Source of the DNA: a bacterium
GTDB lineage: Bacteria; UBP14; UBA6098; JAFGQG01
Reading direction: 5' to 3'
DNA length: 64,000 nt
Assembly (NCBI GenBank): GCA_016935765.1
Contig: JAFGQG010000175.1
Coordinates: forward strand, 355 to 64,354
The translations under genes and the position numbers were made by a program. The notes below the pieces were generated by a model, which was not told where the DNA came from, ran no database searches, and was given only the letters and a program-made list of their open reading frames with translations. Positions within the stretch are counted from its first letter, which is position 1; the number at the start of each line of letters is the position of its first letter. Of this stretch, positions 800 to 22,307 are shown in pieces.

Positions 800-1142
800 A
801 ATTCCTCCTAAATTCGTATTTCGTTTCCTGATAAAATTATAAGAAAGTATATAGACTTTGTAAACATTTTTTTTTGAAGTAGTAAAAATACTGGAATCCT
901 GTACGATTTAGTTGAATAAATCATTATTAAAATTTCCACAATCTCCACCGGATGAGTGGATGTATGGACTGGTGGACGACTGTTAATATTATGATCATTT
1001 TATATCTCATTTGTTATTATTTCCAAAAGTTTAATTGGTAAGCTTCTTTCCTTAATTCTAAATGAGCGCAAGTTTAAAGATGCTAATTTAGCATACGAAC
1101 TTAGAAAATTGCTAAATAAATTAACTGCGGCGCATAAAAAGC

Positions 1143-1171
1143 TTGTATTAAATTAAGTAAGTAATTATATT
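1143..1171 (+). promoter_or_regulatory. Sigma70-like promoter of the 1217-7631 operon
   Basis: TTGTAT-N17-TATATT. Confidence 0.45.
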
Positions 1172-1216
1172 AAACCTTTTATTTTTAATTATACTGATTG
1201 GAAGCACATACAAATT

Positions 1217-2881
1217 ATGAAAAGAACGTTTTGTTGGTTGGTTATAATAGTATTGATTTCGGGTTGGCTGAGCCTGTTATCGGCTGAACCGGTAGCGAAA
1301 CCGAGTGGTTTTTCCAGTTCTGTTGACACGGTTCAGATAGGGGAGATCCAACAGGATCCCGCAAGCTACTATTCTGTGGCATTTGAGGGGGTAGTTACTC
1401 TCGGTGCGGATATCATAGACACGGCTAGGTTCAAAGCGTATATACAGGATGGTTCAGGGTATGGCATCCTTTTGTTCAATTATGATTTCACTGCGGCGAT
1501 GGTGTCGGTCGCTCAAAGAGGGAATTTGCTGGGGGTGACAGGAACTGTAACCGAGTATTATGGCGTTACGGAGATAACGGGTGTGAACCTGACCCTGATC
1601 GACAGCAGCCAGGCTATTCCGGCGCCGGAGACCCTGAGCACTGTCGAGTTGAACGATCCACGCTGGGACGGAACTTTGATCTATACCGAAGCTATGGTCA
1701 CCGACGTTTACTCAACGGGAGCTGATTATAACGTGAACATCGATGACGGCTCCGGTGAAACACTCATAAGGGTTTGGTCCACAGCTAACATCCCTATGGA
1801 GACCTTCGAAACAGGGCACTGGTATTCCATAATCGGAGTAGGCTCGGTATATATCGATTATGATGACGATACGACCTACCAGGTGCTGGTTGGATACCTG
1901 GATGATATCGCTGAGCTGGATACTACTCCCGTTGATACGATCCCTGAGGATATTACGCTGATTTCGCAAATCCAGGCAGACCCGTCAGCTTTTCATGAAG
2001 TGACGGTTGAAGGAGTGGTCACTCTCGGCGCGAATATCATTGATACTTCATATTTCAAGGCTTACATACAGGACACTTCGGGGTACGGAATAATGCTGTT
2101 TGATTTTGATAATCTGCCTGATATGATTACCAAAGCCCGAAGGGGCAACCTGGTTCGCGTGAAAGGGACGGTGGAGGAATACAATGCTGTAACGGAAATC
2201 ACTGATTTGACCATCACCCTTCTCGATTCGAACGTTGCCCTGCCCAATCCAGATACGGTTAGCACGGAAGATCTTAACGACCCGCGGTGGGAAGGTACTT
2301 TTGTGTATACCCAGGGAGAAGTAGTGGACCTTTATTCGACAGGGAACGCTTTCAATGCGCACCTCGATGACGGCTCGGGGGATGTACCTTTAAGAGCCTG
2401 GGGAACTACCGGTATTCCGCAGAGTGTATTCGATTTGGAGCACTGGTATTCCGTTCTGGGTGTCGGTTCGATCTATATCGATGGCAGCGAAACGACCTAC
2501 CAGGTTCTCCTTGGATATGAGGAGGATATATCCGAGATAGATACGCTGTCCCCGGTTACTCCGACGTCCGAGGAAGTAAAATTGACCGTGGTCCCCAAGA
2601 CCTTCGCGCCGAGCCTCGGGGAGAGTTACCCGGTGACTGTTAATATCCCCCGGGAGGCGGAGGTAGTGATAAGGATATACGACATCCATGGCAGGCTTGT
2701 CAAGACACTTTTTGATGAAAGCACTTCCGGTTTGATCTCGATCGAATGGGACGGCAAGAACGACTACGCGCGTACTTTGACCTCCGGGGTTTACCTCTGT
2801 CATCTCGAGGTGAAGGAGATCGCCTCGGGAGATGTGGAGAATAAATTAGCGCCAATAACAGTAGGTTTGCCATTAAAATGA
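1217..2881 (+). CDS. Secreted protein with two tandem double-OB-fold repeats and a FlgD-Ig/T9SS-like C-terminal domain
   Basis: Signal peptide; two ~200-aa repeats (GVVT..YIQD.SG.GI..RGN..V.GTV.EY..VTEI; DDGSG) like the OB modules of YhcR/ExeM-type nucleases; tail IYDIHGRLVKTL..WDGKND..SGVY. Confidence 0.8.
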   Translation: MKRTFCWLVIIVLISGWLSLLSAEPVAKPSGFSSSVDTVQIGEIQQDPASYYSVAFEGVVTLGADIIDTARFKAYIQDGSGYGILLFNYDFTAAMVSVAQRGNLLGVTGTVTEYYGVTEITGVNLTLIDSSQAIPAPETLSTVELNDPRWDGTLIYTEAMVTDVYSTGADYNVNIDDGSGETLIRVWSTANIPMETFETGHWYSIIGVGSVYIDYDDDTTYQVLVGYLDDIAELDTTPVDTIPEDITLISQIQADPSAFHEVTVEGVVTLGANIIDTSYFKAYIQDTSGYGIMLFDFDNLPDMITKARRGNLVRVKGTVEEYNAVTEITDLTITLLDSNVALPNPDTVSTEDLNDPRWEGTFVYTQGEVVDLYSTGNAFNAHLDDGSGDVPLRAWGTTGIPQSVFDLEHWYSVLGVGSIYIDGSETTYQVLLGYEEDISEIDTLSPVTPTSEEVKLTVVPKTFAPSLGESYPVTVNIPREAEVVIRIYDIHGRLVKTLFDESTSGLISIEWDGKNDYARTLTSGVYLCHLEVKEIASGDVENKLAPITVGLPLK

Positions 2882-2885
2882 GAAT

Positions 2886-3791
2886 ATGATAATGAAGTTC
2901 ATGTTAAAAATAAAAATTTCAGTGCTTGTTTTTCTGCTTTTTAAATGTTCCGCGCTCGTTGCTGAACCGTTCGAATTTCCACCGCCGTTACCGCAGGTCG
3001 GCGCGCTGGGCGGAATAACAACATGCCTGGAAGGGAACCTCTCAGGGAGTGTCGGGAACCCCGCAAGCCTCGCCGATTGGAAAAGTTACGGTATCGCGCT
3101 TGCCTACTCGAAGCTTTATAATCAATCGTTCCTGGGATATACGACTATCGCCAGCGGGATAAAACTGCCCCGGTACGGAACCCTCGGAATGGCGTATAGA
3201 GATGTCGTGGTAAAGTACCAGGAGGTGGTTTTAACTAACGAGCAAACGTTCACCTTCTCGCACGGGTTCATAATCATGCAGGATATCCATTCATCCCTCG
3301 ACCTCGGTTATGCTCTGAATATCTACACGCTGCAATATGCGGAATCCGTTGAGGGAAGGAACCTGGGATCGAGTTACACGTTCGGATTCAACATCGGGGC
3401 TCAAGCAAGGATATATGACCGCACCTACGTCGGCTTGTTCATGGAAAACGTGAATTCCCCAAAGATCGGGGATGAATTCAAGGAAAGCCTGCCTCAGAGA
3501 CTGAAATTGGGTCTGGGTTACGAACCTTACGATAAGATATTGACCCTGTTCGAGGTTGAAAAAGAGCATAACCACGATATCCAGATGAGGTTCGGGATCG
3601 AGGTCAAGCCTTACGAAGAGTTGAGTTTAAGGGTTGGAGGTCAGAACAGACCGGAGAAATTCAGCGTTGGGTTCGGCGTCAACATCATGGGCACGGTATT
3701 TGACTATTCCCTGCAAACCCATCCGGTGCTGCCTTTAACACATCATTTCATGCTGGCATTCAGCCTGAGTGGCGGTAATTCAGAAGAATAA
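2886..3791 (+). CDS. PorV/PorP-like (FadL superfamily) outer-membrane beta-barrel
   Basis: Signal peptide; ALGG..GNPASL N-terminal motif; amphipathic strands; C-terminal FDYS...THHF. Confidence 0.7.
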   Translation: MIMKFMLKIKISVLVFLLFKCSALVAEPFEFPPPLPQVGALGGITTCLEGNLSGSVGNPASLADWKSYGIALAYSKLYNQSFLGYTTIASGIKLPRYGTLGMAYRDVVVKYQEVVLTNEQTFTFSHGFIIMQDIHSSLDLGYALNIYTLQYAESVEGRNLGSSYTFGFNIGAQARIYDRTYVGLFMENVNSPKIGDEFKESLPQRLKLGLGYEPYDKILTLFEVEKEHNHDIQMRFGIEVKPYEELSLRVGGQNRPEKFSVGFGVNIMGTVFDYSLQTHPVLPLTHHFMLAFSLSGGNSEE

Positions 3792-3792
3792 A

Positions 3793-6318
3793 ATGCTTTA
3801 CAATAGTAAAAATACATGTTATACTATTATTGTATTTACTCTGTCGATAATGCTGTTTATCCCGGCGGTAGCGGAGACCCAGCTTATCGATATTAATAAT
3901 GCCTCGTTGGATGAGCTTAAGAAGCTCCCCATCAAGAAAAAGGACGCCGAAACGCTTTACTGGCACATCTATTATGGGGGACCTCTGGAGAGCGTTTACG
4001 AACTGAGGGAGATAATGCCTTTCAGCGACCCTGAAAAATTCAATTTGATAAAGCCACTGGTGAAGATCTCTCATGAGCAGACAATTTCCGAGAATCTTGC
4101 GAGGTTAAAGAGAATCGAGTACAAAATTGAGAATTGGGTCTTCGAGGAAGGTGTGAACGAGAACATCTCCGATCTCTGGGTGGATATCGCCTCCTACCTC
4201 ATTAATATAAATGAAGCAAGCATGTTTGATTTGATGAACATTCCGGGTATTACTCCCCAGAGCGCTCTCAGGATAATTAAATATCGCAGGCAAAGGGGTG
4301 GGATAAACAGCCGGCAGGAATTCCGGTCCATTCCCGGGATAACAGGGTACAGCTATATAGGCGCAAGGGATTTGATAAGGTATGATGACCCGAAAGGTTC
4401 GAAGGATCTGAATTTTCACTACCAGTTCAGGATGTCGGATTCCCCATACGAAGAGGAGACCCAGGCTATATTTACTGAGAATTTTGCGGAGTCTGAAACC
4501 GTTTATGATTCCTGGTATCACAGGTTGGATTTGCTTGACGCGCATTCAAAATTATTTCATAAGTTTAACATCGGTTTCGATAGGTACAAGGCTGGCTTTC
4601 TTGCTTCCAGGCCTCTCGGCGGAGAAGTTAAAGGAAACCGGCTTTATAACCCGTTTGATTACCCGCTGAACAAGGGGTTCATCAGCGCTGAAAACCTTTG
4701 TTATGGTCCGTTCTGCATGGATAGACTCATTCTCGGTAACTACTATGTGTCGCTTGGTCAGGGGGTCATCATGGAGAACACCGACGCGTTCAAGCCCCGT
4801 AAATATGGATTCTACAATAGCAAGAGATTCTCCGGGATAATGGGTGACCTCTCCCAGACATCAGAATATCAACTGAACGGATTCGCGTTCCAAAGTAATC
4901 TCTACCGAAAGATATACCTGACCTCGTTCTACTCGATTGACAATAAGGACGCTGTCTTGAACCAGGATTCCACTTCGACAAACTGCGATAATTCCTTCGC
5001 GTCGTACATCGACCTGGGCGACATGTTCAGCAATGACGACCTCGAGAGCGCTGGATTACTCCCAATGAACGATGTGCTCGAGGAGAGGACATTCGGTACT
5101 GACCTGAGGTTTCACCCTATCGATGAAATAAGCTGCGGATTCAGCTTCCTGCAATTGAATTATGACCGCGAGTACGACCCGCAAATCTCAGCCTTCGTCG
5201 ATGATGAAACCTTCGAGCAAAGGCGAGCCCTGGTCGATAACGAATACCTGCTGCTGAGTTCACCGGGCGGAAAATCCCGCAGAATGATCGGTTTCCACTT
5301 CCAGGCGGTTCATGGTGATCTGTCGTTCCAGGGAGAATATGGCGAGCTCGCGGATATCGGAAAGGTCTTCAAGTTGGGGGATGAACCCAAGGGACTGGTC
5401 CTGAGTTTACTCCTGCACACTAATAAACTGGATTTCTTGACACTTTACAGAAATTATGATATAATTTTTGATAACCCGTATTCCAGGTCCTTCTCCAACT
5501 ACCAGAGGTACAAAAGCACGATATTCACCAAGCCATATTACATGGATAACCCAGTCTATGGGCTAATATACAATAATTCCGCGTCGCCCCAGGCAGAGGA
5601 GGGCGTGTATTTCGACCTGTGGTACCAACTGACCTCCGCTTTAAGGACAGGTCTAGAGTTCGATGTGTGGAACAGGAAGGCTGATGGCAGTAAGTACAAC
5701 AGGATAGTCCTGAAGCTTTCATATCAGCCGATTAGAGGTTTGAATTTCAACCTCAGGCAGAAATGGCAGAGCAGGAACGAAGATAATGTGATAACCATGA
5801 ACAAGTTCGAAAATCTGGAGACGAGGCTGACGTCAAGATTCAGGCTTTCGAAGTTCGATGAAATTGTATTTTTGTATTCGAAGAACGATACATATTTTCC
5901 AAGTTCGCCGAGGTTCAGTTTTGATGTCGAACCCAACGGTGAGAAGCCCCTGTCGGGGAGTGTAGTATCCCCCGGGGAAGCACTGGGATTCGAACTTACG
6001 CATAATTTCAACGACGATATATCGAGTACGATCGCGGGTATTTTCTACAAGGGTTTTCTGTGGAATTTCGAGGAGGGCGAATTTGTAGTCCTTGAAACCG
6101 AGAATAACGACGCCTTCAGATACTGGATTTCTATCAAGGATAACATTTCAAAGCACATGGTTGTCAGGGCGAAATACACCTGGGATTATGAGTTTGCCCT
6201 GAACAACCCGGACATAAGAACATATAACAACGAGCCGGAGGAACTGGATGGTGAATTGGACAGGGTCCAGAGAGCTTCCGAATCCTTCCGCTTGCAGATC
6301 GATTATTTTTGGTGGTAA
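3793..6318 (+). CDS. ComEA-type helix-hairpin-helix protein fused to an outer-membrane beta-barrel
   Basis: Two HhH regions (IDINNASLDELKKLP; ININEASMFDLMNIPGI..FRSIPGI); long amphipathic-strand C-terminus ending RLQIDYFWW; start chosen at ATG 3793. Confidence 0.8.
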   Translation: MLYNSKNTCYTIIVFTLSIMLFIPAVAETQLIDINNASLDELKKLPIKKKDAETLYWHIYYGGPLESVYELREIMPFSDPEKFNLIKPLVKISHEQTISENLARLKRIEYKIENWVFEEGVNENISDLWVDIASYLININEASMFDLMNIPGITPQSALRIIKYRRQRGGINSRQEFRSIPGITGYSYIGARDLIRYDDPKGSKDLNFHYQFRMSDSPYEEETQAIFTENFAESETVYDSWYHRLDLLDAHSKLFHKFNIGFDRYKAGFLASRPLGGEVKGNRLYNPFDYPLNKGFISAENLCYGPFCMDRLILGNYYVSLGQGVIMENTDAFKPRKYGFYNSKRFSGIMGDLSQTSEYQLNGFAFQSNLYRKIYLTSFYSIDNKDAVLNQDSTSTNCDNSFASYIDLGDMFSNDDLESAGLLPMNDVLEERTFGTDLRFHPIDEISCGFSFLQLNYDREYDPQISAFVDDETFEQRRALVDNEYLLLSSPGGKSRRMIGFHFQAVHGDLSFQGEYGELADIGKVFKLGDEPKGLVLSLLLHTNKLDFLTLYRNYDIIFDNPYSRSFSNYQRYKSTIFTKPYYMDNPVYGLIYNNSASPQAEEGVYFDLWYQLTSALRTGLEFDVWNRKADGSKYNRIVLKLSYQPIRGLNFNLRQKWQSRNEDNVITMNKFENLETRLTSRFRLSKFDEIVFLYSKNDTYFPSSPRFSFDVEPNGEKPLSGSVVSPGEALGFELTHNFNDDISSTIAGIFYKGFLWNFEEGEFVVLETENNDAFRYWISIKDNISKHMVVRAKYTWDYEFALNNPDIRTYNNEPEELDGELDRVQRASESFRLQIDYFWW

Positions 6319-6320
6319 AT

Positions 6321-7631
6321 ATGAAATCAAAGATCAGCCTGTTGGCTTTAATATTTTTACTCTGTTTAAGCTTCAATATTCTTTACGGGTACACATTCCT
6401 GGACAAGTCGTTTTTCGGGGACAGGATCCATACTATCGATGTCAGGAGTCTGGGAATGGGCACGACCGGTTTCGCTTCCGGGAAAGGTACCTTTTGCGTC
6501 AGCAAGAACCCGGCTTTGTTATCTGAGCTTCCCTTGCTGGATATTGCCTTTGCCGGGCAAGCGCTGGTGTACCAGGAAGCGCATTCCTTCCCCGCTCACG
6601 GCTTCGAAATGGAATTCGTAGCGGATAACATATACTCGGAGAATATGACCTATTACGACGATTATGCCCTCGGGCTTACTGTTAATCCGAAGTACGAATA
6701 TGCACCCGCGATCGCAATGGCTTATATCCCTTTGTACGATTTCAGGTACCAATTCGAGGAGGAGGTCAGGGGTGTCGAATCCCCTTACCAGGATGAGCTG
6801 ATAGGGTGGAACAATGTGAATTGCAGTGGAAACATTATGGGTTTTACAGTGGGGATGTCCAAGGATTTCCTGAATATCATCAACCTGGGTTTAGCCTACC
6901 AGTACCTCCTGGGTGACAGAACGACGCAGGTCGATGTCATATACCTGGTTTCCGAAATAGACAAACTTAACGAAACGAGGCTGACCAATCTATACGGTAA
7001 CCGACTGAAATTGGGATTACTGGCAAAGCCGCATGACAGGTTTTCGGTGGGTTTGGTCTATAACACCGCAACTAAAGCGAACGCGAAACTCGAGCATAAT
7101 TTTACTGGCAACTATAACTTTTTCCCAGAGTTCGAGAATAAACTATCGACAGATGTCGAGTTGAAGTATCCTGCTTCGTTCGGAGTGGGTATCGAGTACC
7201 GCCCTCAGACTAATCTCTTCTCCAGGCTGAATGTAGATTGCGAATATACGTTCTGGGAGAACGCGAAGGTGCAGAAGGATGATGGGGAGGACCTGCTGGA
7301 ACTGGAATTCGAAAATACTTTCGAACTCGCAGGCGGGGTTGAGCATATTCTATATAATGATATCCCGCTTAGATTTGGATTTCACATTGTCCCAGAGTAC
7401 ACGGATAATGATATTATGACCACGTATTTCGATCTTGGGACGGCGTTCAAGTTCTCGTACTTCCAGCTTGGAATATCGCTGGAGTACGGCTCAAAGGAAT
7501 ACGCTGAGATGGATTTCTTCCCCGATGGTGACTTGTACGGGGGATATGGGGGTACAAACCGCGAAAGTAAGGATAAGATAAAGATAAGGGAGCTAAGGAT
7601 ACTGTTTAATTTAAACGCGGTAAAAAAGTGA
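6321..7631 (+). CDS. FadL/OmpP1-like outer-membrane channel
   Basis: Signal peptide; RSLGMG..KNPALL hatch motif; LKYPASFGVGIEY; beta-strand pattern. Confidence 0.7.
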   Translation: MKSKISLLALIFLLCLSFNILYGYTFLDKSFFGDRIHTIDVRSLGMGTTGFASGKGTFCVSKNPALLSELPLLDIAFAGQALVYQEAHSFPAHGFEMEFVADNIYSENMTYYDDYALGLTVNPKYEYAPAIAMAYIPLYDFRYQFEEEVRGVESPYQDELIGWNNVNCSGNIMGFTVGMSKDFLNIINLGLAYQYLLGDRTTQVDVIYLVSEIDKLNETRLTNLYGNRLKLGLLAKPHDRFSVGLVYNTATKANAKLEHNFTGNYNFFPEFENKLSTDVELKYPASFGVGIEYRPQTNLFSRLNVDCEYTFWENAKVQKDDGEDLLELEFENTFELAGGVEHILYNDIPLRFGFHIVPEYTDNDIMTTYFDLGTAFKFSYFQLGISLEYGSKEYAEMDFFPDGDLYGGYGGTNRESKDKIKIRELRILFNLNAVKK

Positions 7632-7696
7632 GGGGGGACAGACTGAATTCAGAATAACGATCAACGATTGTTGATTTGAAGAAGAAAAAATTCTTT

Positions 7697-7821
7697 AAAA
7701 AAACGGGGCCGATCCAGTTAGATAAGCTTTCGATATAATTATTGTTGAGATCCCATTAATCATGTTCGCTATCGAACGGGACAGGCGAGACTTCCCGACT
7801 TATCGGGACGACCTCCGGCTT
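7697..7821 (-). pseudogene. Duplicated 3' half of tRNA-Asp interrupted by two palindromic inserts
   Basis: aaaaaaacggggccga + 73-nt insert + cgagact + tcccgacttatcggga + cgacctccggctt matches 7843-7886. Confidence 0.7.
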
Positions 7822-7849
7822 AAAGCACTTTAGAATGTTATTAAAAAAA

Positions 7850-7926
7850 CGGGGCCGACGAGACTCGAACTCGCGACCTCCGGCTTGACAGGCCGGCGTT
7901 CTAACCAAATACTGAACTACGACCCC
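7850..7926 (-). tRNA. tRNA-Asp(GTC), CCA not encoded
   Basis: GGGGTCGTAGTTCAGTATTTGGTTAGAACGCCGGCCTGTCAAGCCGGAGGTCGCGAGTTCGAGTCTCGTCGGCCCCG forms a cloverleaf. Confidence 0.95.
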
Positions 7927-7951
7927 GTTAACATTTCAAAAATCAGCAAGA

Positions 7952-7979
7952 AATATATATTTACCCAGGAATATGTCAA
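7952..7979 (-). promoter_or_regulatory. Sigma70 promoter for tRNA-Asp
   Basis: TTGACA-N16-TATATT on the minus strand. Confidence 0.6.
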
Positions 7980-8063
7980 TACAAAAAAATAAAAATCAAA
8001 TAATTGCTGGTTTCTGAATTATCCAGAATCATGGAGTTTCGATAAAGATAGGTTATACTTAAT

Positions 8064-8375: not shown

Positions 8376-10925
8376 TTATCTTAAAAGCAACACTTTTTTT
8401 ATGATATTCTGGTCCTGGACGGTGAGTTTAACGAAATATATCCCTGAAGGCTGCTCTTCCGGCATCTCCCATATAGTCCGGTACACACCTTTGATGACCT
8501 TTTCATTAAAAACGGTGCCGACCTTTTTACCCAAAAGGTCATACACTTCCAGGCTGGCAGGTCCGTGTCTATCGATGGCGAAGTTCAAATTCAGGGTTGC
8601 GTTGAAGGGGTTGGGGTACGTAACGAGCGCTAATTTGTCAGGGATTTTTATGACCATATCATTTAAACCCGTCAGGTCGTAAAGTTCAAGATCGTCAACG
8701 TACCAACCGGCGGCATTTGAGTAATTATCAGTTCCAATTTCAAAACGGATGATGGCAGCTTCTCCAGAAAAAAAAGTTAAATCGAAATTCACTTGATGCC
8801 AATAGTTACCGTTTTCCATGCCACCAAATGCAGGTTGCCCACCTAGATAAATATTGTGACCGGATATTAGTTTATCGTATCCTTCTACCGGTACTACAAC
8901 CGTCCAGGAAGATCCTGCATCCACAGATATTTTTAAATTTCCTCCTTCAAAGATTTCGAAGCTTGTTTCACCAATGAATTTATACCACTGCATAAAGCGC
9001 ACAGCTGGATATTCAGTAATTCCTAGAAAAACATTCATATCAAGCATCCAATTCACACTATCTCTATAGTATCCATCTATGTTAGTTCCCCAGCATTTTG
9101 ATCCAGAATAAGCGGATGTAGGACCATGTACAAAATCTGGTATCCCCCATTCCCATCCGCTATCGGGAGGTTCTGCTTCCAGATAACCATCATCCAGTTC
9201 AAAGTCACTTTCATATAAATCGGGCATCATTTCAAAGTTATAAACTGCAGTATCCAACTCACTTATCACAACTCCAGAAGTTACAAATGTAACGTAATAC
9301 GGCTTTGATATCTCAACATGATAAGTTCCTGTTTCTAAAGTATCAATTAAATAGTAACCATCAATATCAGTAGTATCTGCTCTACCCAACTCAACGATTT
9401 CTACAATCACACCTTCATCAATATCATTGTAAAGAAGATCTACATTTCCCCTAAGATGACCAAAATCTGGATGAAGTATGAAATCGAGGAAAGTGGTATC
9501 ATATTCAGTTATCGTAACTCCAGTTTTTTCAACAGTTAAAAAGTGGCCTTTTGATGCAAATACTGTATGATCTCCTAGTAACATGGAGTCTATCATGTAA
9601 TTACCATACTCATCAGTAAGGGTATTGATTGCCAAGTCGGGGATTTCAATCAACACATTACCATGGGTTTCTTCTCCTAATAGTTCAACATTGCCACTAA
9701 GACTTCCATACCTATGTGCAAGTTTGAAATCATCTATATACCACCCGTGGAAATTATTAAACCGATCAGCACCAAAGTGGAACTTCAGCTTGATTACTTC
9801 TCTTTCATAAGGTTCAAGAGAAATATGTACCAATTCCCAGCCATCGCTGTGCCCGGAGAATGCAGGTTCTCCAGCGATTGTAGAACCTGAATCCATCTCA
9901 AAAACAGGATACCTTTCATCAGGAATTAAGATTTCCCAGGTAGCGCCAGAATCAATAGAAATACAAATATTTCCTCCATCCTTGTTTGCCTCTGTTTCGA
10001 ACCAGTGCCAGAATTCAACATAGGGATATACTGTAGTAGTCAAATTGATTAAAGGGGAAAAAAGGGTGTAATCTGCTGGATTAGAATATAAGCCATCAAC
10101 ATTGGTTCCGAAGCAATATGGAATTGAATGGGCTTCCCCGGGACCATCTCCTTCTGGTGTGCCCCATTCCCATTCTCCCAACAATTCATCCTCAAGTAGA
10201 AATGGGAAATGACCTTCATTGAAATCGTTAAAATAAAATGGGATTAAAATAATGCTTTTAAAAAAAAGGATTGTCAGGTTGTCATGAATATTACTTGTAT
10301 CACGTCTATGCTCTCCATATTGGAGTCCGATTGTTCCAGTTTCATTTTCAACGCCAATATATGCAACTCTATAAGAGGATATTACTGGCTCAATATCAAG
10401 ATATTGAAATATTATAGTATTTGTTCTAAAATTTAAAATGATTTCATAAGTACAAGGTGGATAACTAGTTCCTCCTGGGTATTCTCTTATCCGGAAATAT
10501 TCAATCACCAGTTTACTACCTATGAATTGATAATACACTCCTCCCCCAGGACTGTCACTTGGGTCGAGGTCCATATTTAAGATACCCAATACATTATTAG
10601 GAATGTATGAATTGGGGAAAGGACCTACGGTGATTGCAGAAATAGCATCTGAAAAACTTATCCAGCCATTTGAGCAGATATGAACTTCGTTATAATTATT
10701 GCCATAATAAAAAAAGGGCTCAGCGAGTACAATAGTTTCATAATCGTCATCGTAAAGGCTTATATGGGTACCAGTACTACATAATTCAATCCAATTAAAA
10801 GCTATTCCTGAATATTCGTCTGAATCTACCCACAAATAACCAAATTCATCTGGTCCACCGATGCTTGCTAGGCTAATCCCAACACATGCTAAGCTAAACA
10901 TTATTATTAAATGTTTCTTTATCAT
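8376..10925 (-). CDS. Secreted multidomain T9SS-type cargo, paralogue 1 (GGPD-FGY domain, two MAM/InhA-like jelly-rolls, two carboxypeptidase-regulatory-like domains, CTD)
   Basis: Signal peptide; GGPDEFGY.W.DS; WEWG.P..GP...GWYIDD twice; YPNPFN..SGIYFVKL..KKVLLLR. Confidence 0.85.
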   Translation of the reverse strand: MIKKHLIIMFSLACVGISLASIGGPDEFGYLWVDSDEYSGIAFNWIELCSTGTHISLYDDDYETIVLAEPFFYYGNNYNEVHICSNGWISFSDAISAITVGPFPNSYIPNNVLGILNMDLDPSDSPGGGVYYQFIGSKLVIEYFRIREYPGGTSYPPCTYEIILNFRTNTIIFQYLDIEPVISSYRVAYIGVENETGTIGLQYGEHRRDTSNIHDNLTILFFKSIILIPFYFNDFNEGHFPFLLEDELLGEWEWGTPEGDGPGEAHSIPYCFGTNVDGLYSNPADYTLFSPLINLTTTVYPYVEFWHWFETEANKDGGNICISIDSGATWEILIPDERYPVFEMDSGSTIAGEPAFSGHSDGWELVHISLEPYEREVIKLKFHFGADRFNNFHGWYIDDFKLAHRYGSLSGNVELLGEETHGNVLIEIPDLAINTLTDEYGNYMIDSMLLGDHTVFASKGHFLTVEKTGVTITEYDTTFLDFILHPDFGHLRGNVDLLYNDIDEGVIVEIVELGRADTTDIDGYYLIDTLETGTYHVEISKPYYVTFVTSGVVISELDTAVYNFEMMPDLYESDFELDDGYLEAEPPDSGWEWGIPDFVHGPTSAYSGSKCWGTNIDGYYRDSVNWMLDMNVFLGITEYPAVRFMQWYKFIGETSFEIFEGGNLKISVDAGSSWTVVVPVEGYDKLISGHNIYLGGQPAFGGMENGNYWHQVNFDLTFFSGEAAIIRFEIGTDNYSNAAGWYVDDLELYDLTGLNDMVIKIPDKLALVTYPNPFNATLNLNFAIDRHGPASLEVYDLLGKKVGTVFNEKVIKGVYRTIWEMPEEQPSGIYFVKLTVQDQNIIKKVLLLR

Positions 10926-11044
10926 TCCTTTATGCCCCCTTAAATTCAGCCATGTTTTTGATATTAGAATCAAATAAAATAGTGTTTTACGTCTGTATAA
11001 TATAAATTTGATACAAACTTATTGAGCATAAAAAACGATTTTTT

Positions 11045-13597
11045 CTATTTCAAAAGCAGTACTTTATTTATTATAGACCGATTTTGTACAGTGAGTTTAA
11101 CGAAGTAAATTCCTGATGGCTGCCCTTCCGGCATCTCCCACGAAGTCCGGTACACCCCCTTGATGACCTTTGCATTAAAAACGGTACCGACTTTTTTACC
11201 CAAAAGATCATACACTTCCAGGCTGGCAGATCCGTGCCTATCGATGGCGAAGTTCAAATTCAGGGTTGCGTTGAAGGGGTTGGGGTAAGTCACGAGCGCT
11301 AATTTGTCAGGGGTCTTGATAGTGGCTTCTGGAACATCCACCCATTCGTAGACCTGAATATCGTCGAGGTACCAGCCGGCAGCGCCTGAATGGTAATCGG
11401 TTCCGATCGAGAACCTGATGAGGGCGCTTTCACCAGCGTAAGGTCTCAGGTCATAGTTCACCATGTGCCAGAAATTTCCGTTATCCATGCCGCCGAAAGC
11501 TGGTTCGCCAGCCATGTATATATTGTGGTATGAAACCGGGTTTATATATCCTTCAAGGGGGACAAGCAGTTCGAAATTATCTCCACCATCGATGGATATC
11601 TTCACGTTACCACCTTCGAAAAGCTCTGAGCTGGTTTCCCCGTTGAACCTGTACCAATGCATCATTCTCATTGCGGGGTATTCTGCAATGCCGAGGAAAA
11701 CTGAGAGGTCGAGTTTCCAGTTGACGTTATCGCCATATTCCCCGTCGAGGTTCGTACCCCAGCAGTTTGAGCCGGAGTTAGCCCAGCGTGGTCCCTGCAG
11801 GTAATCTGGATCCGGGGTGCCCCATTCCCACGCGCTGTCAGGTGGGTCGGGAATTAAAGCCCCGTCCTCCAGTTCGAAATCGCAGTTGTAAAGTTCGGGG
11901 AAAAGATCGTAGTCGCGAATGACAGTATCAAGCTCGGTTACAACTACTCCTGAATCCAACGAAGATACGTAGTGCGGTTTGGTTACTGAAATGGAATATG
12001 TCCCAATTTCAACAGTATCGATGAAATAGTTGCCTTCTGCATCGGTTGTATCAAATTTCCCAAGTTCGAGAATTTCCACTACTGCTCCTTCGTCCACATC
12101 TTCGTACAGTAAGTCCACATAGCCTTTTATGAAGCCGAAATTCGGGTGAAGCTCAAAGTCCACGACAGTAGTATCGAATTCAGTGATCGCTACATCCGGT
12201 TCTTCGATCGTGACATAATGGTTTTTCGAGACTCTTATAGTGTAACTTCCTATCATGACGGAATCGATGGAATAATATCCTGCTTCGCCGGTAAGGGTCG
12301 CTTTTCCCAATTCTACTATTTCTACTCTGGCGTTCCTATCGTAATCATCGGCAACGATGTCCACGTTACCTTCGAGTGTGCCGAATTTTTCCAACAAGCT
12401 GAAATCGTCGATATACCACCCTGGCATGGTGTTTTCCGCGTCAGAAGCGAAGTCGAATTTAAGCCTTACCTCTTCCAGAAGGAACGGTTCGAGGTTGAGT
12501 TTAACACGTTCCCACCCGCCACTGCTTCCGGAGAACGCTGGCTCGCCGGTGATAGCAGTACCGGCACCCATTTCGTCGACGGGGTACCCATCATCCGGAG
12601 TAATTAACTCCCAGGTTATACCATCGTCGGTAGTGATCTTGATGTTGCCGCCGTCATGGGATTCCTCTGTTTCGTACCAATGCCAGAAGAGAACGTAAGG
12701 ATGTTGAGCGGAATAAAGGTCCATTCTTGGAGCTAATAAAGAATAATTCGCGTAATCAGTGTGGTTCCCTGCTAAGAATGTGCCGAAACAATATGGTGTA
12801 GAGTGTGCGCCACCGGGACCGGCGCCGATAGGAGTTCCCCATTCCCATTCGCCAATAAGCTCTATATCTTCCATGAAATCGTTGCCCGATAATGTGAAGT
12901 CATTGTAATAGAACGGGGCGATAACGATGTTGCTTCTGAAGAGAATTGCCAAACTGTCATGTATGTCGGAATCGACTGAAGTGTGGGTTCCGTATTGCAG
13001 CCCAATAGTGCCTGTTTCGTTCTCGATCCCTACGTATCCGGTTCGGTAGCTTGTCAATTGCACAACCAGGTACTGGTATTTTATTGAATTAGCGACGAAA
13101 TCGAGTATTATCTCATAAGTATATGGTGGGTATGAAGTTCCCCCCGGATACTCTCTAATCTGGTAGTACTCGATGACCATAAGGTTGTCGATGAACTGGT
13201 AGTAAACACTTCCACCCGGGCTATCTGCGGGATCAAAATCCATGTTTACAATACCCATGACTGCGTTTGGGTAGCTGGAGTTGGGGAAAGGTCCCACAGT
13301 GATATAGGTAGTTCCATCCAGAAGGCTGATCCAGCCGTTCGAGTTTATGTGCACCTGGCTGTAATCGATACCATAATACTCAAAGGTTCTATCTGTAAAA
13401 CGTACAGTGGAGTAAGCATCATCAGATAGTGTAACTCTCGTCCCGGTGGTGGATATTTCTATCCAGTCGAACGCGGGACCTGAGGGCTCCTCAGAGTCAA
13501 TCCATCTATATCCAAACGCGTCGGGTCCTCCCGTGCTTGCCAGAGCCCCAAGCGTAAAAACTGACAGGAACAACAAAATTATATACAGATTTTTCAT
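11045..13597 (-). CDS. Secreted multidomain T9SS-type cargo, paralogue 2
   Basis: Collinear with 8376-10925; YPNPFN-type CTD; GGAG RBS. Confidence 0.9.
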   Translation of the reverse strand: MKNLYIILLFLSVFTLGALASTGGPDAFGYRWIDSEEPSGPAFDWIEISTTGTRVTLSDDAYSTVRFTDRTFEYYGIDYSQVHINSNGWISLLDGTTYITVGPFPNSSYPNAVMGIVNMDFDPADSPGGSVYYQFIDNLMVIEYYQIREYPGGTSYPPYTYEIILDFVANSIKYQYLVVQLTSYRTGYVGIENETGTIGLQYGTHTSVDSDIHDSLAILFRSNIVIAPFYYNDFTLSGNDFMEDIELIGEWEWGTPIGAGPGGAHSTPYCFGTFLAGNHTDYANYSLLAPRMDLYSAQHPYVLFWHWYETEESHDGGNIKITTDDGITWELITPDDGYPVDEMGAGTAITGEPAFSGSSGGWERVKLNLEPFLLEEVRLKFDFASDAENTMPGWYIDDFSLLEKFGTLEGNVDIVADDYDRNARVEIVELGKATLTGEAGYYSIDSVMIGSYTIRVSKNHYVTIEEPDVAITEFDTTVVDFELHPNFGFIKGYVDLLYEDVDEGAVVEILELGKFDTTDAEGNYFIDTVEIGTYSISVTKPHYVSSLDSGVVVTELDTVIRDYDLFPELYNCDFELEDGALIPDPPDSAWEWGTPDPDYLQGPRWANSGSNCWGTNLDGEYGDNVNWKLDLSVFLGIAEYPAMRMMHWYRFNGETSSELFEGGNVKISIDGGDNFELLVPLEGYINPVSYHNIYMAGEPAFGGMDNGNFWHMVNYDLRPYAGESALIRFSIGTDYHSGAAGWYLDDIQVYEWVDVPEATIKTPDKLALVTYPNPFNATLNLNFAIDRHGSASLEVYDLLGKKVGTVFNAKVIKGVYRTSWEMPEGQPSGIYFVKLTVQNRSIINKVLLLK

Positions 13598-13741
13598 TTT
13601 ATGTCCTCTCCTTGTTATAAAGACAAATCAATCATGGGAAATAAGAAAATTAATTATGAAGGGAGTCATTGAATGTGCTGCTCCATCTTGTATTGTTTTT
13701 TCATAATTACCCGAATACAAAGTTTCTATATTTTTCAGTTT

Positions 13742-16063
13742 TTATTTGATTAACAATATTTTCTTTGCTGTGCTGCTTTTCCCGTTAAAGTAGAGTTTTA
13801 CGATATATACTCCGGAGGGCATGGGGTTTGATTGATCGTCCATACCGTTCCATTGGGTTTGGTGTCTTCCCGTCCCCTGGGGAGCGTCATATAAAGTCTT
13901 TATGTTTCTCCCTAGTAAGTCGAACATACATAGCTTAACGGTTCCTTTTCGGAATGTGGAATAGCGGATATTGACGTTCTGGTTGAATGGGTTGGGGTAA
14001 CAGGTCATGTCGTAATCCTCAGGAAGCTCGCTTTCATCTTCAGGTATGGCAAGTCCTTCCACTATTCTCAGGTCGTCGATATACCACCCCGAGGCAGTAC
14101 CATAGTAATCGGTGCCGATTTCGAATCTGATTATGACTGATTGGCTTGCGTATTCAGTCAGGTCGAAAGAGGTCATGTGCCAGAAGTTGCCCTCGTCTTT
14201 TCCTCCGAATCCGGGTTGATTCCCAAGAAATGGATTATGGTTGGATATGACTCCCGGGTAGCCTTCAGTTGGGTAAGCCAGGACGAATGAAGGATCTTCG
14301 ATATTGTTGCTTATCTTCACGTTTGCGCCATCGAAGAACAAATCGCCCATGTCGTACCATTGCCAGAACTCCAGTCTTGGGTGTTCGCCTCTGTTCAGGG
14401 TGATGTAGAGGTCAAGCAGCCAGTTGCATGTATCCTTGTAGGATGAGTCCAATTTTGTCCCCCAGCATTTTAGTCCGGAATGAGCGTACATAGGCCCCAT
14501 CGTATCGGCGGTGTCAGGGATTCCGCATTCCCAACCGCCGAAGATCGGTGTATGAATCACGGGACCACAATTCTCCTCGAAGTCGTTAGTATAAATCTGT
14601 GGAGCCAACACGAAATTTTGAGTGGTTGTATCCTGCCGCGAAATGCTTATATATGCTTCGCCAGGGGCGTATTCGAATGAGGTTGCCCTCAGGTTCCAGT
14701 TTCCAACTAAAACTGTGTCGATAAAGAAAAAGCCGTCGTAACCCGTGGTATCGGCAATCCCTTGCCCCACCACTTCGATGATCGCTCCACTGTCATGGTC
14801 CATGTAGGTCAACTCAACGTGCCCGGTTACGTAACCGAAAGCTTCTATCAGAGCAAAATCGTCAATGTACCAGCCCGGCGAGCGACCGCTTTCGTTCGAT
14901 GCAAAGTGATATCTCACCCTGATCTCCTCGTCCCTGAATGATGAAAGATCAAATTCCTCTTTTTCCCATCCATCGCTTGCGCCTGAATAAGCAGGCATGC
15001 CTTCGATAGCGGAACCTTCTTCCATGTCCGAAACGGGGTACCCTCCGTTGGGGATAACAATGAACCAGTTTATGCCGTCATTAGTAGTGATCTCAAGGTT
15101 TCCACCGTCCTGACCCTCATCCATGTCATACCAGTGCCAGAAGTTCATGTAGGGATAATTAGTGCCGCTGAGTGCCATTCGAGGGGAGTATAAATAGCTG
15201 TCAGTAGAATTGGGATAGGATCCATCTATCGTAGTTCCAAAGCAATAGGGTCCCGTACGGGGATAACCGGGACCTGGTCCTGACGGCATACCCCATTCCC
15301 AGCAGCCAGTGTCTGCAATATCCTCCATGAAGTCTTCGGCAGTCTCGTCGAAGCCGTTGTAATAAACCGGATTAATCACTATGTTGGATCTGAACATTAT
15401 TGCTAATTCATCGTGAAGCACACTTACATCATGACCGTGAGTTCCATATTGAAGCCCGATAGTACCGGTCGAATTTTCAATACCGATATAAGCTGTGCGG
15501 TATGTTGAATACACAGGTTCAATGTCAAGGTACTGGAAAAATATGGCGTTCCTGCGAAAATCGAGCACTATCTCGTATGTACATGGAGGATAAGTGGTTC
15601 CCCCTGGATATTCGCGTATCTGGTAGTATTCGACAACCAGCTTCCTATCGATGTATTCATAAACGACCCTTCCGCCCGGACTGTCTCCCGGGTCGAGGTC
15701 CATATTCAATATTCCAAGCACGTTATTGGGGAAATAGGAATTTGGAAAAGGACCTACCGTGATCGAGGAAGTCGCGTCAGTGAAACTAACCCAACCGTTC
15801 GAACAGATATGCAATTGACTGTAACCGACGCCGTAGTAGTCGAAGATCTCTGGCATTGTAATGCTTTGATAGGAGTCATCATATAGACTTAAGGCAGTTC
15901 CAGTCGATGAGATCTCTATCCATTCGAATATCGGTCCCGATGGTTCGTCCGAGTCGACCCATCTGTATCCGAATTCATCCGGTCCACCTTCGCTTGAATA
16001 AATATTAATAGAAAAAAATATCAAAAAGAAAATTGTAAAAAAAACTAATTGTTTATATTTCAT
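13742..16063 (-). CDS. Secreted multidomain T9SS-type cargo, paralogue 3 (one stalk domain fewer)
   Basis: Same GGPDEFGY and jelly-roll domains; single carboxypeptidase-regulatory-like repeat; FlgD-type CTD. Confidence 0.88.
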   Translation of the reverse strand: MKYKQLVFFTIFFLIFFSINIYSSEGGPDEFGYRWVDSDEPSGPIFEWIEISSTGTALSLYDDSYQSITMPEIFDYYGVGYSQLHICSNGWVSFTDATSSITVGPFPNSYFPNNVLGILNMDLDPGDSPGGRVVYEYIDRKLVVEYYQIREYPGGTTYPPCTYEIVLDFRRNAIFFQYLDIEPVYSTYRTAYIGIENSTGTIGLQYGTHGHDVSVLHDELAIMFRSNIVINPVYYNGFDETAEDFMEDIADTGCWEWGMPSGPGPGYPRTGPYCFGTTIDGSYPNSTDSYLYSPRMALSGTNYPYMNFWHWYDMDEGQDGGNLEITTNDGINWFIVIPNGGYPVSDMEEGSAIEGMPAYSGASDGWEKEEFDLSSFRDEEIRVRYHFASNESGRSPGWYIDDFALIEAFGYVTGHVELTYMDHDSGAIIEVVGQGIADTTGYDGFFFIDTVLVGNWNLRATSFEYAPGEAYISISRQDTTTQNFVLAPQIYTNDFEENCGPVIHTPIFGGWECGIPDTADTMGPMYAHSGLKCWGTKLDSSYKDTCNWLLDLYITLNRGEHPRLEFWQWYDMGDLFFDGANVKISNNIEDPSFVLAYPTEGYPGVISNHNPFLGNQPGFGGKDEGNFWHMTSFDLTEYASQSVIIRFEIGTDYYGTASGWYIDDLRIVEGLAIPEDESELPEDYDMTCYPNPFNQNVNIRYSTFRKGTVKLCMFDLLGRNIKTLYDAPQGTGRHQTQWNGMDDQSNPMPSGVYIVKLYFNGKSSTAKKILLIK

Positions 16064-16290
16064 AATACACTCCATTTATGATATTTTGAAAATTAATTAA
16101 ATATTAAAATAAATCTAATAAATAAGCAAGTAAAATTCTATGAAAATTTAATTTTGAGATAGGAAAAATTAGAAAAAGTGTTGTAAAAATACTGTTAATG
16201 TATGATTCAAACCCAAGAAATGATTGCAAGAAAGTTCGGAATTTGGGGGCAGTGAATTGTGGGGGGAAATGCCCAATATGGATGATATTT

Positions 16291-17685: not shown

Positions 17686-17830
17686 CTTTTTGTTTCTCCT
17701 CGTTTTTGAACAATAGTACAATAAAATTATAATAAAACAATTTCGTAAAAACAAGGAAAAATTTGATTAAAATTTTGTTAAGGGATAAAAACAAGGCAAA
17801 TTCAGCTTACATGTTTCTAGGGATTTGTTA

Positions 17831-20739: not shown

Positions 20740-21057
20740 TTATTCAACTGATACTGTTTCAACCAAAAGTTTTATTCTACGAATTATCTCGCCTATTGAG
20801 AGTTTTTGCTGGTGAACAAAAATGATTCCTTGGTATTCTTTACCTTGTAATCCCCATTCTGTTGCTATTCTTACAAGGTCATCATCATGAGTAAAGAAAA
20901 CTGCATCATTTGCTGATGCAAATTCTAAAAGGCTCTCATCATCCTCATTTGATTTATTCAACTCTTGTACTGTAGTAATTTCAACCCCCCGTCTTCTTAA
21001 TCCCATCACTATCTTATAATTAACGTTTTCATCAGCGTGGATTTTTATCTTTTTCAT
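20740..21057 (-). CDS. DUF5615 PIN-like toxin (VapC45-like), probable premature stop 9 codons before the natural end
   Basis: ADENV..LRRRG..DD..LL..A......THDDDL; the frame continues *MRNHVEFL* to 20713. Confidence 0.8.
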   Translation of the reverse strand: MKKIKIHADENVNYKIVMGLRRRGVEITTVQELNKSNEDDESLLEFASANDAVFFTHDDDLVRIATEWGLQGKEYQGIIFVHQQKLSIGEIIRRIKLLVETVSVE

Positions 21058-21353
21058 TCTGGAATCACTGATCTGAATTTTTTTTGTGCTTCTCTAATAT
21101 ATTCCTGCCGGTTTTCTATTTCATTATCGATACCTTCTCGGTTTTCGTAATAGTAAGACAAAACATCATGGATCTGTTGAAGATTAAGTTGTGGATGGGC
21201 TTCTATGATTTCATAAGGTGTGTAACCCAGCAGTTCATACTCTATCACGATATCAATAACTCTTATTCGAGTATTTTTGATAATTGGTGTGCCTCCACAG
21301 ACACCCTTTTTTTGCTCTATGTATTTATGAAGTTCTTTTGTTATATTATCCAT
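21054..21353 (-). CDS. DUF433 antitoxin
   Basis: GVCGGTPIIKNTRIRV..EIIEAHPQL..QIHDVLSYY; 4-nt overlap with the toxin. Confidence 0.85.
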   Translation of the reverse strand: MDNITKELHKYIEQKKGVCGGTPIIKNTRIRVIDIVIEYELLGYTPYEIIEAHPQLNLQQIHDVLSYYYENREGIDNEIENRQEYIREAQKKFRSVIPE

Positions 21354-21504
21354 ATTTTCTCCAATTATTATTAAGAAATAATACAAATGCAATCTAAGGC
21401 ATGGAACGATAAATTGCAAGAATTTTCTTGCCGGGTACATCAATTTTGCTATATTTAAGTTTATTAAATTGAATTTTAATAGGCGATCTAAAGAAGGGGG
21501 AATT

Positions 21505-22024: not shown

Positions 22025-22051
22025 TCATTTACAAATAACAGCACTATGCTC

Positions 22052-22278: not shown

Positions 22279-22307
22279 TTGACAAAATATAATAATGATG
22301 ATATAAT
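22279..22307 (+). promoter_or_regulatory. Perfect-consensus sigma70 promoter, antisense to the downstream genes
   Basis: TTGACA-N17-TATAAT. Confidence 0.55.

Follow-up and report, generated by a model that had tools for sequence, protein, structure and literature searches.

To our knowledge, DNA crosses the outer membrane either through a type IV pilus and its secretin or, as known since 2021 to 2025, through the TonB-dependent Ddb and Riemerella transporters of the Bacteroidota. The latter are the closest described counterparts of the locus examined here, a four-gene operon at positions 1217 to 7631 of a 64,000-nucleotide stretch of DNA (positions 355 to 64354 of contig JAFGQG010000175.1, working label C54; henceforth, the window) from a bacterium of the UBP14 lineage (assembly GCA_016935765.1; 3.98 Mb, 200 contigs, 89.85% complete). 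The operon encodes a surface protein built of oligonucleotide/oligosaccharide-binding (OB) folds (gene 1), a small outer membrane barrel (gene 2), a large barrel carrying two ComEA-type helix-hairpin-helix (HhH) domains (gene 3), and a second small barrel (gene 4). On balance, we lean toward the view that these four genes form the core of a nutritional system for scavenging extracellular nucleic acid, present in candidate phyla of the Fibrobacterota-Chlorobiota-Bacteroidota (FCB) group that possess a type IX secretion system (T9SS).

As far as the accessible part of the Riemerella anatipestifer report goes (PMC8459023), transposon and deletion mutants showed that a DUF5689 surface protein (RA0C_RS04920), the adjacent barrel of the carboxypeptidase-regulatory type (RA0C_RS04915), and an unlinked HhH protein (RA0C_RS02645) are each essential for natural transformation, and a pilus-independent outer membrane route for DNA was proposed. 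In Bacteroides thetaiotaomicron, the available portions of two accounts (bioRxiv 10.1101/2025.03.18.642099; PMC12478041) describe ddbABCDEF, encoding three nucleases, the TonB-dependent DdbC, the DUF5689 protein DdbD, and DdbE, as required for the depletion of exogenous DNA; DdbD was modeled as HIN/p202-like and compared with PDB entry 4JBM (bioRxiv 10.1101/2025.03.18.642099). DUF5689 is thus a domain of surface partners of both a DNA uptake and a DNA use system (PMC8459023; bioRxiv 10.1101/2025.03.18.642099). A sequence-only reading of the window had proposed a pilus-independent nucleic acid capture and uptake operon and had added that no system of this composition was described. Because of the Riemerella and ddb papers (PMC8459023; PMC12478041), to the extent of their accessible text, a pilus-free outer membrane DNA route with an OB/HIN-like surface receptor must be considered already in print, and the claim of novelty holds for the composition only: no description of the gene 3 barrel or of the operon was found in the literature searched, the coverage of which excludes many subscription papers and supplements, and the terms "helix-hairpin," "ComEA," and "type IX" are absent from the accessible text of the ddb paper (PMC12478041), its supplements lying outside that scope.

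Judged by the accessible parts of these sources, the likeness to ddbABCDEF lies in an operon that pairs a HIN/OB-like surface protein with an outer membrane transporter and, in the wider family described below, with phosphoesterases that degrade nucleic acid, all without a pilus or secretin and apparently with a role in feeding. Additionally, p202 (4JBM), the comparator for DdbD, is also among the matches of gene 1. However, DdbC is a TonB-dependent, SusC-type protein, whereas gene 3 encodes an unrelated barrel of approximately 24 strands with fused ComEA domains and without a plug or TonB receptor match; the ddb binders are lipoproteins, whereas the putative binder encoded here carries a T9SS-type tail; and the operon in the window has two added FadL-type barrels and no nuclease. 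The Riemerella system offers the same three functional parts, i.e., a DUF5689 surface protein, an outer membrane barrel, and a predicted periplasmic HhH protein, but there, again according to the portion available, the HhH protein and the carboxypeptidase-regulatory/TonB-type barrel are encoded at separate loci and the outcome is recombination, while here a single polypeptide combines the HhH domains with the barrel, and the conserved partners are degradative. By analogy, the cluster appears to be a functional counterpart of the ddb and Riemerella systems, but not a member of either. Its HhH receptor is fused to a barrel of an uncharacterized, widespread family, gene 1 has no direct DUF5689 match, and the surface protein would be displayed by a T9SS tail instead of a lipid anchor.

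The strongest evidence that the four genes belong together comes from other phyla. A profile built from 22 gene 3 relatives led to 510 places among representative genomes of 185,579 species, and the best 80 of these, all from other species, were used for synteny counts after open reading frames (ORFs) had been called and searched with the four proteins; a locus was considered assessable if it had enough flanking DNA. According to their record titles, the 80 loci derive from Zixibacteria, Eisenbacteria, Calditrichota, Marinimicrobia/Neomarinimicrobiota, Gemmatimonadota, Cloacimonadota, and one Ignavibacteria bin. All matches flanking the barrel gene shared its strand and kept to one order: gene 2 directly upstream at 67 of 68 assessable loci (the single miss, L032, being an ORF-calling artifact, since a gene 2 match is listed there), a gene 1-like protein upstream at 55 of 55, and gene 4 downstream at 64 of 69. 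At 46 of 49 assessable loci, genes 1, 2, and 4 all accompany gene 3 in the order 1-2-3-4, and where at least 6.5 kb of upstream DNA was available (45 loci), two gene 1-like ORFs were present at 24 loci and one at 21. A set that recurs so often in other phyla, at dozens of loci, far exceeds what chance would produce, and the conservation across FCB candidate phyla that the sequence-only reading had called for is borne out. Separately, one bin labeled Gemmatimonadota (L007:13670-17296) encodes a PorU-like protein, with Peptidase_C25 and its propeptide, a MAM domain, and a FlgD_ig tail, approximately 2 kb downstream of a five-gene cluster.

That fifth gene is the second pillar of the argument. 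Clustering of the flanking ORFs revealed a same-strand gene directly after gene 4 at 57 loci (54 of the 59 with enough downstream DNA), corresponding to 72 proteins, of which 38 matched 5_nucleotid_C, 30 matched Exo_endo_phos, the endonuclease/exonuclease/phosphatase (EEP) family, and 4 matched no family in Pfam. Most of the 5_nucleotid_C proteins also contain Metallophos and are UshA-like by NCBIfam, and the EEP genes occur mainly at Marinimicrobia-type loci, as a pair encoding proteins of approximately 640 and 300 amino acids (aa). Two of the EEP proteins carry a lamin-tail domain (LTD), one of them together with a T9SS tail (L068:240-1967 and L055:7065-8165). The link to nucleic acid that had been deduced from the domains alone is thereby joined by one from gene content. 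An ABC (ATP-binding cassette) binding protein opens 17 of the loci, directly before the first gene 1-like gene (13 of 38 when only loci with 7.8 kb or more of upstream DNA are counted); the four binding proteins examined (three with Pfam, one with NCBIfam) are SBP_bac_1/8, UgpB-like proteins, and a conserved permease gene lies upstream at ten loci. As an aside, the fifth gene at one Marinimicrobia locus (L053:11858-13819) is a fusion of a UshA-like metallophosphoesterase N-domain (residues 32 to 234, NCBIfam) with an EEP nuclease (residues 400 to 610, Pfam), followed by a second EEP gene for a protein of approximately 300 aa; 14 further EEP proteins of 616 to 672 aa from other loci have their EEP domain at the same C-terminal position as this fusion.

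Within the bacterium's own phylum, the distribution of the barrel was compared with that of the nucleotidase, of PorU, and of competence genes in a sample of 26 genomes, which are kin and not independent. The gene 3 barrel was found in 13 of these, including all 8 genomes of family f6 and 1 of the 12 of family f3, and a nucleotidase ortholog (E ≤ 1e-60) in 11. Ten genomes have both and 12 have neither; three have the barrel only (G021, G022, and G025), and one, 80% complete, has the nucleotidase only (G001). The sole f3 genome with a barrel, G004, is also the sole f3 genome with a nucleotidase. Where both occur, the genes lie about 5 kb apart or less on one contig in five genomes (G018, G019, G020, G023, and G024) and on separate contigs in the five others, i.e., the source genome (G000) and G002, G004, G015, and G017. 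PorU, by contrast, was detected in 25 of the 26 genomes (12/12 in f3), ComEC in 23 (10/12 in f3), and a secretin in 25. These counts mark the barrel as an accessory trait that travels with the nucleotidase and not with the T9SS core or the competence genes: because ComEC, secretin, and PorU are near universal in the phylum, the barrel is neither a core part of the T9SS nor tied to competence.

The source genome itself fits this pattern. Its nucleotidase ortholog is unlinked to the operon (C127:6600-8219; 539 aa; 476 bits to the fifth gene of locus L007) and starts with a hydrophobic, signal peptide-like segment. By the PorU criterion, the genome has a T9SS: a PorU scoring 638.6 bits (cutoff, 420) is encoded next to a PorV-like protein on contig C80, not on the operon contig, and 50 further, weaker matches to the PorU model cover mostly its C-terminal sorting domain region. 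The SprA models TIGR04189 and PF14349 matched nothing in any genome, controls included, and are uninformative on SprA. Finally, the genome contains ComEC, one secretin, and, on contig C165, a separate gene for a 259-aa ComEA-like protein, such that the proposed absence of pilus and secretin components applies to the operon, and not to the genome.

Gene 3 was described from the sequence as a barrel with two ComEA-type HhH regions, and this description stands. HHH_3 was found in two stretches (Pfam; E of 6.9e-17 for the full-length protein and 1.2e-18 for the isolated N-terminal region), with subthreshold matches to the ComEA models TIGR01259 (39.6 bits; cutoff, 152.35) and TIGR00426 (27.6 bits; cutoff, 53.1). 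An AlphaFold2 (AF2) model (predicted local distance difference test [pLDDT] score, 84.1; predicted template modeling [pTM] score, 0.80) orders the protein into a signal peptide, HhH1, two long helices, HhH2, and a barrel of approximately 24 strands that ends in FWW (residues are counted from GTG 3769 for this protein, P0003, and from TTG 6309 for the gene 4 product, P0004). HhH1 superposes closely on Geobacillus ComEA but is degenerate, because its first hairpin reads LPIK where ComEA has letters of the PGIG type; HhH2 aligns to two ComEA structures and retains the motif PGI...A..II.YR. The relationship to ComEA (PDB 8dss, 8dfk, and 2duy) thus extends from sequence to fold. Nonetheless, ComEA is small and either soluble or membrane anchored, whereas this protein of 841 aa, most of which is a 640-residue barrel, falls below the family cutoffs.

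The barrel is harder to place. Alone it matches no Pfam family, not even at E ≤ 10 for TonB receptor, plug, or CarboxypepD_reg domains (none at E ≤ 1 for the whole protein); the family profile matches solved structures through the HhH part only and none through the barrel; and Foldseek returned generic large barrels with template modeling scores of at most 0.32 and no specific relative. The best folds (VIA) were the ushers FimD and PapC (PDB 3ohn and 2vqi), with some 370 residues aligned at 10 to 11% identity, and TonB-dependent receptors gave generic barrel matches (Z, 10.5 to 12.1). Since unrelated porins follow within 1 Z unit, the usher match indicates a 24-strand size class and not a relationship. 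The protein lacks an usher Pfam match as well as plug and chaperone-binding domains. The most conserved stretches of the barrel family, at residues ~330 to 360 and ~561 to 573 (window positions ~4756 to 4848 and ~5449 to 5487), contain GQG.VMEN.D and YD..FDNPY, are rich in invariant D, E, and R residues, and are placed by the model in segments that separate the strands, where they may give rise to a constriction, a plug, or a metal site. Because the strand number is even and the C terminus aromatic, both ends of the barrel should, by what is generally known of outer membrane proteins, face the periplasm, and the HhH domains would then be periplasmic, with the caveat that tails can thread through barrels, as the N-terminal tail of BamG does. 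The family is large, with 1542 representatives (50% identity) at E ≤ 1e-3 and 115 at E ≤ 1e-30, which databases name only "HhH domain-containing" or "ComE-like." The ESM Atlas additionally lists, as candidate relatives, Bacteroidota clusters of 529 to 585 aa named ComEA/HhH (score, 0.95 to 0.96). RA0C_RS02645 of Riemerella and the ComEA of P. gingivalis (PGN_0421) were considered as possible HhH-barrel fusions, too; for both, the accessible text gives domain positions alone.

Gene 1 likewise proved to be what had been read from it, namely, four OB modules and a putative sorting tail without a nuclease domain. Local self-alignment (score, 625) divides it into two tandem repeats of approximately 205 aa, the tRNA_anti-codon OB fold was found in four stretches (Pfam; E = 4.6e-13), and the AF2 model (pLDDT, 83.1) shows four OB barrels, two per repeat, and an Ig-like tail. 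On the full-length protein, the tail scored 30 bits with FlgD_ig (cutoff, 27), 15.3 bits with Por_Secre_tail (cutoff, 27), and, below its cutoff, 19.1 bits with TIGR04183. No catalytic domain was detected with Pfam or NCBIfam, Exo_endo_phos included. The best Foldseek match of the model was the p204 HINab-double-stranded DNA complex (5z7d_B; E = 9.9e-14), with further matches to RPA, CST, RADX, BRCA2, and single HIN domains (among them that of p202, 4jbm_A), and a single module superposed best on the anticodon-binding OB domain of AspRS (5gro_A; Z, 13.9; root mean square deviation [RMSD], 2.2 over 94 residues). Residues 92 to 177 match the noncatalytic front of the extracellular nucleases ExeM and NucH (NF033681 and NF033680; PMC6085458, as far as its accessible text goes), covering only model positions 40 to 130 of 546; this likeness extends to the LTD and OB modules of its relatives, but neither gene 1 nor any of the 17 relatives sampled in the gene 1 position contains the catalytic EEP domain. 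This sample, searched with Pfam, originally comprised 18 proteins, one of which (the C25 peptidase farther downstream in L007) was set aside; 10 of the 17 have an LTD, 9 an OB fold, 3 DUF5689 (one over the cutoff), and 10 a T9SS-type tail. Gene 1 is, judged by its domains, a short version that lacks the LTD seen in many relatives. DUF5689 gave no direct Pfam match in gene 1, neither on the full-length protein nor on isolated regions, and residues 51 to 260 align (independent E value [i-E], 7.8e-9) to the region of an L045 protein where DUF5689 scores 25 bits. The product is strongly acidic, as had been pointed out as a caveat, with a net charge of −55 and an isoelectric point (pI) of 4.05, compared with a proteome median of 5.32.

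The two small barrels belong to one superfamily. Gene 2, taken in the sequence-only reading as PorV/PorP-like, did match the PorV/PorQ family, albeit weakly (43.8 bits; cutoff, 90), and its family profile reached PorV with the N-terminal 86 positions only; there was no Pfam match, and PorP was not among the matches listed. Gene 4, read as a FadL-like channel, belongs to the FadL superfamily, with 17.6 bits to Toluene_X and, below the cutoff, an E of 3.1e-18 to BamG (NF053685) as a single sequence. The best match of its family profile was the BamG-type chain of the B. thetaiotaomicron β-barrel assembly machinery (BAM) complex, followed by TbuX (2.3e-16), TodX (1.6e-13), and FadL (about 1e-11) and, more weakly, by PorV and the BamG of F. 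johnsoniae (about 1e-6). Gene 4 is located in the four-gene operon, not among bam genes. By these scores, it is nearer to anchor barrels of the BamG type than to a proven channel. Anchoring by such barrels has precedents, as PorQ holds PorZ at the cell surface. Similarly, BamG is a FadL-type anchor barrel that holds BamH, according to the accessible part of the source (PMC12611786). Genes 2 and 4 resemble these proteins (PDB 6h3i_F, 9hiv_F, and 9n2d_B) both in superfamily and in standing beside a protein with a C-terminal sorting domain (CTD) and a large barrel, like PorV with SprA and BamG with BamA (PMC12611786, in the same part); they differ in scoring well under the curated cutoffs (for gene 4, 66 bits versus 250), and a canonical PorU/PorV pair is encoded elsewhere in the genome. 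The genome contains 14 subthreshold PorV family matches, suggesting that small FadL/PorV-type barrels constitute a large paralogous family, perhaps with one member per surface protein module.

On these grounds, we propose the following sequence of events. Gene 1 would be exported by the T9SS and held at the surface, possibly by the gene 2 or the gene 4 barrel, in parallel to PorQ/PorZ and BamG/BamH. Its tandem OB modules would capture DNA or RNA, a task for which relatives have LTDs or, sometimes, CTD-bearing EEP nucleases in the same position. The polymer, or fragments of it, might then cross the outer membrane through the gene 3 barrel, the putatively periplasmic HhH domains of which would bind the strand as it enters and favor inward movement without TonB or a pilus; ComEA, for which a role as a periplasmic ratchet has been proposed, serves as the model for this step. 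Finally, periplasmic nucleases and the UshA-type 5'-nucleotidase would release nucleosides and phosphate, with a UgpB-like ABC importer encoded in the same operon in some lineages.

Several points weigh against this proposal. Neither nuclease nor nucleotidase nor importer was found in the four-gene operon of the window with Pfam and NCBIfam, no experiment on any family member was found in the literature searched, and no source of energy or directionality for DNA movement is evident. Acidity is unusual for a DNA binder, and 75 of 76 segments homologous to gene 1 have a pI below 7, although the proteome is acidic, too. One of the two HhH domains is degenerate, the highly conserved loops may plug the lumen of the gene 3 barrel, and the FadL-type barrels may be channels instead of anchors. 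The last of these points leads to the alternative that we consider unlikely, if the least so of four, in which digestion takes place at the surface: gene 1 would hold DNA for extracellular nucleases, nucleotides and nucleosides would enter through gene 4 or through gene 3 as a plain porin, and the HhH domains would serve another purpose, for example, periplasmic DNA retention or docking. The LTD-bearing EEP nucleases of some relatives, one with a T9SS tail, would suit such an arrangement, as would the profile matches of gene 4 to true FadL/TodX channels (1e-16 to 1e-11), and mononucleotides suffice for a periplasmic 5'-nucleotidase. However, a barrel of some 24 strands with two DNA receptor domains far exceeds what a nucleotide porin needs, and, as far as their genes were examined, 38 of the 57 fifth-gene loci encode a nucleotidase without a nuclease. 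The acidity of gene 1, which fits direct DNA binding poorly, would be less of a problem if the module imported nothing and its barrels, like the known FadL-type anchors of FCB bacteria (PMC12611786, accessible part), merely displayed CTD proteins that bind extracellular DNA or another polyanion in a biofilm matrix or on particles. We regard this as quite improbable, since it leaves the near-constant nucleotidase or nuclease partner, the co-occurrence, and the ComEA-type domains on a large barrel unexplained.

Transformation deserves separate mention, as nutrition and transformation had been offered as alternatives. If the HhH barrel were a gate through which captured DNA reaches ComEC and DprA and is recombined, a scheme already proposed for the pilus-independent Riemerella route, such a role would have in its favor that a DUF5689 surface protein, an outer membrane barrel, and an HhH protein are each essential there (PMC8459023, accessible part), that ComEC is encoded in the source genome, and that ComEA-type domains are a hallmark of competence DNA receptors. 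Yet, ComEC is present in the phylum regardless of the barrel, including in most of family f3, where the barrel occurs once; the conserved partners in cis are degradative enzymes, not comEC, dprA, or comF; and the separate ComEA and the secretin of this genome could serve a conventional route. This makes transformation an unlikely main purpose, ranking just behind surface digestion and ahead of mere display, and shifts the balance toward nutrition, although feeding and transformation are not mutually exclusive. Least of all do we expect the HhH barrel and its partners to be general type IX secretion or attachment machinery, a very remote reading: the T9SS-type tail of gene 1, the PorV/PorQ-like nature of gene 2, and the PorU-like C25 peptidase approximately 2 kb downstream in L007 would be in line with it, but PorU occurs in nearly all genomes of the phylum (all 12 in f3) and the barrel in half of them (one in f3), and the source genome has its above-cutoff PorU with a PorV-like neighbor on another contig. 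A general T9SS role had been named by the sequence-only reading as one of the threats to its proposal.

Returning to nucleic acid scavenging, sediments and the deep ocean contain large amounts of phosphorus, nitrogen, and carbon in the form of extracellular DNA. We speculate, with less than even confidence, that gene 3 represents an undescribed class of outer membrane nucleic acid translocon, i.e., an usher-sized barrel through which DNA polymers pass without TonB, pilus, or secretin, which is driven by a fused periplasmic ComEA ratchet, and which is fed by T9SS-displayed OB/lamin-tail receptors on dedicated FadL-type barrels, and that it is a main route for the consumption of environmental DNA in uncultured phyla that abound in sediments and the ocean (Marinimicrobia, Zixibacteria, Calditrichota, and Eisenbacteria). 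If true, this would add to the known routes a third gate, one that needs no TonB and has a DNA receptor as an integral part, and would explain how several such phyla feed on DNA. It would also provide a compact protein with which to study how polymers traverse a barrel, its gene could serve as a metagenomic marker of DNA scavenging, and the gate could affect gene flow where some of the imported DNA survives.

The coordinates of the operon, taken from the ORF list, the translations, and a reading of the junctions, are given in Table 1. As had been claimed, the four genes are co-oriented and tightly spaced, with gaps of 4, 1, and 2 nucleotides: the TGA of gene 1 ends at 2881, before the ATG of gene 2 at 2886; the TAA of gene 2 ends at 3791, before the ATG of gene 3 at 3793 (the ORF itself opens at GTG 3769); and the TAA of gene 3 ends at 6318, before the ATG of gene 4 at 6321 (the ORF itself opens at TTG 6309). 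All four products begin with a basic and then a hydrophobic stretch, which, judged by eye, are putative signal peptides. Upstream of gene 1, an AT-rich spacer of 417 nucleotides is preceded by a minus-strand ORF (377 to 799), and gene 4 is followed by a minus-strand tRNA-Asp gene (7849 to 7927) and further minus-strand genes; since these bound it on both sides, the unit consists of exactly four genes here. Promoter and terminator scans yielded no reliable signal above shuffled expectation, and reads from two metatranscriptome runs and one DNA run, mapped to positions 1000 to 8000, covered the tRNA gene alone and almost nothing of the operon, being uninformative on expression.

Table 1. Features of the four-gene operon, in window coordinates, with the evidence for each
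Feature	Position	Strand	Evidence
Gene 1 (P0001, 554 aa): predicted secreted surface protein with signal peptide, two tandem double-OB repeats, and T9SS-type C-terminal domain, without nuclease domain	1217..2881	+	Translation, Pfam/NCBIfam, self-alignment, model, fold searches
Gene 1 repeat 1, residues 36-240, two OB barrels	1322..1936	+	Self-alignment score 625; tRNA_anti-codon E 2.7e-6; model
Gene 1 repeat 2, residues 245-450, two OB barrels, pLDDT above 90	1949..2566	+	Self-alignment; tRNA_anti-codon E 2e-7; model; AspRS OB match
Gene 1 C-terminal Ig-like sorting domain, FlgD_ig/Por_Secre_tail type	2567..2878	+	FlgD_ig E 9.3e-8, 32.4 bits (cutoff 27); Por_Secre_tail 19.3 bits (below 27); isolated region
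Gene 2 (P0002, 301 aa): small outer membrane barrel, distant PorV/PorQ family member	2886..3791	+	NF033709 E 2.4e-11, below cutoff; family profile to PorV 6h3i_F 1.5e-5
Gene 3 (841 aa from ATG): signal peptide, two HhH domains, ~24-strand barrel, aromatic last residue	3793..6318	+	Translation, Pfam, AF2 model, fold and profile searches
HhH domain 1, P0003 residues 36-101, degenerate first hairpin	3874..4071	+	ComEA 8dss_B Z 11.3, RMSD 1.4 over 65 residues, 25% identity
HhH domain 2, P0003 residues 143-205, canonical ComEA type, net charge +5, pI 10.3	4195..4383	+	HHH_3 E 1.2e-18; aligned to ComEA 8dfk and 8dss
Gene 3 barrel domain, P0003 residues 214-848, ~24 strands, without Pfam family	4408..6312	+	AF2 model; FimD 3ohn_B Z 14.1, PapC Z 13.7
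Gene 4 (436 aa from ATG): FadL superfamily barrel, most similar to the BamG-type subunit of the BAM complex of Bacteroidota	6321..7631	+	BamG 66 bits (cutoff 250); profile to 9hiv_F 2.4e-19

The remainder of the window is rich in T9SS cargo, with at least 10 large ORFs having Por_Secre_tail, FlgD_ig, or CHU_C tails, among them proteins of 1869, 1424, and 1946 aa, a GH18 chitinase-like protein, and an M4 peptidase. Within 8376 to 17754 (minus strand), three tandem paralogs of 865, 850, and 777 aa combine an InhA-like MAM domain with Por_Secre_tail and, in two of them, CarboxypepD_reg; they are followed by a metallophosphoesterase of the purple acid phosphatase type with a T9SS tail (16291 to 17754). 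Encoded 9 kb away from the operon, this secreted phosphatase might contribute to phosphorus scavenging as well. Farther away, a small DUF433 ORF and a PIN domain ORF on either side of a GNAT acetyltransferase gene (21054 to 23416, minus strand) may represent a toxin-antitoxin-like pair, and three consecutive SPFH/Band 7 genes, the first of which is fused to a cation efflux domain, are located at 42941 to 46632 on the plus strand.

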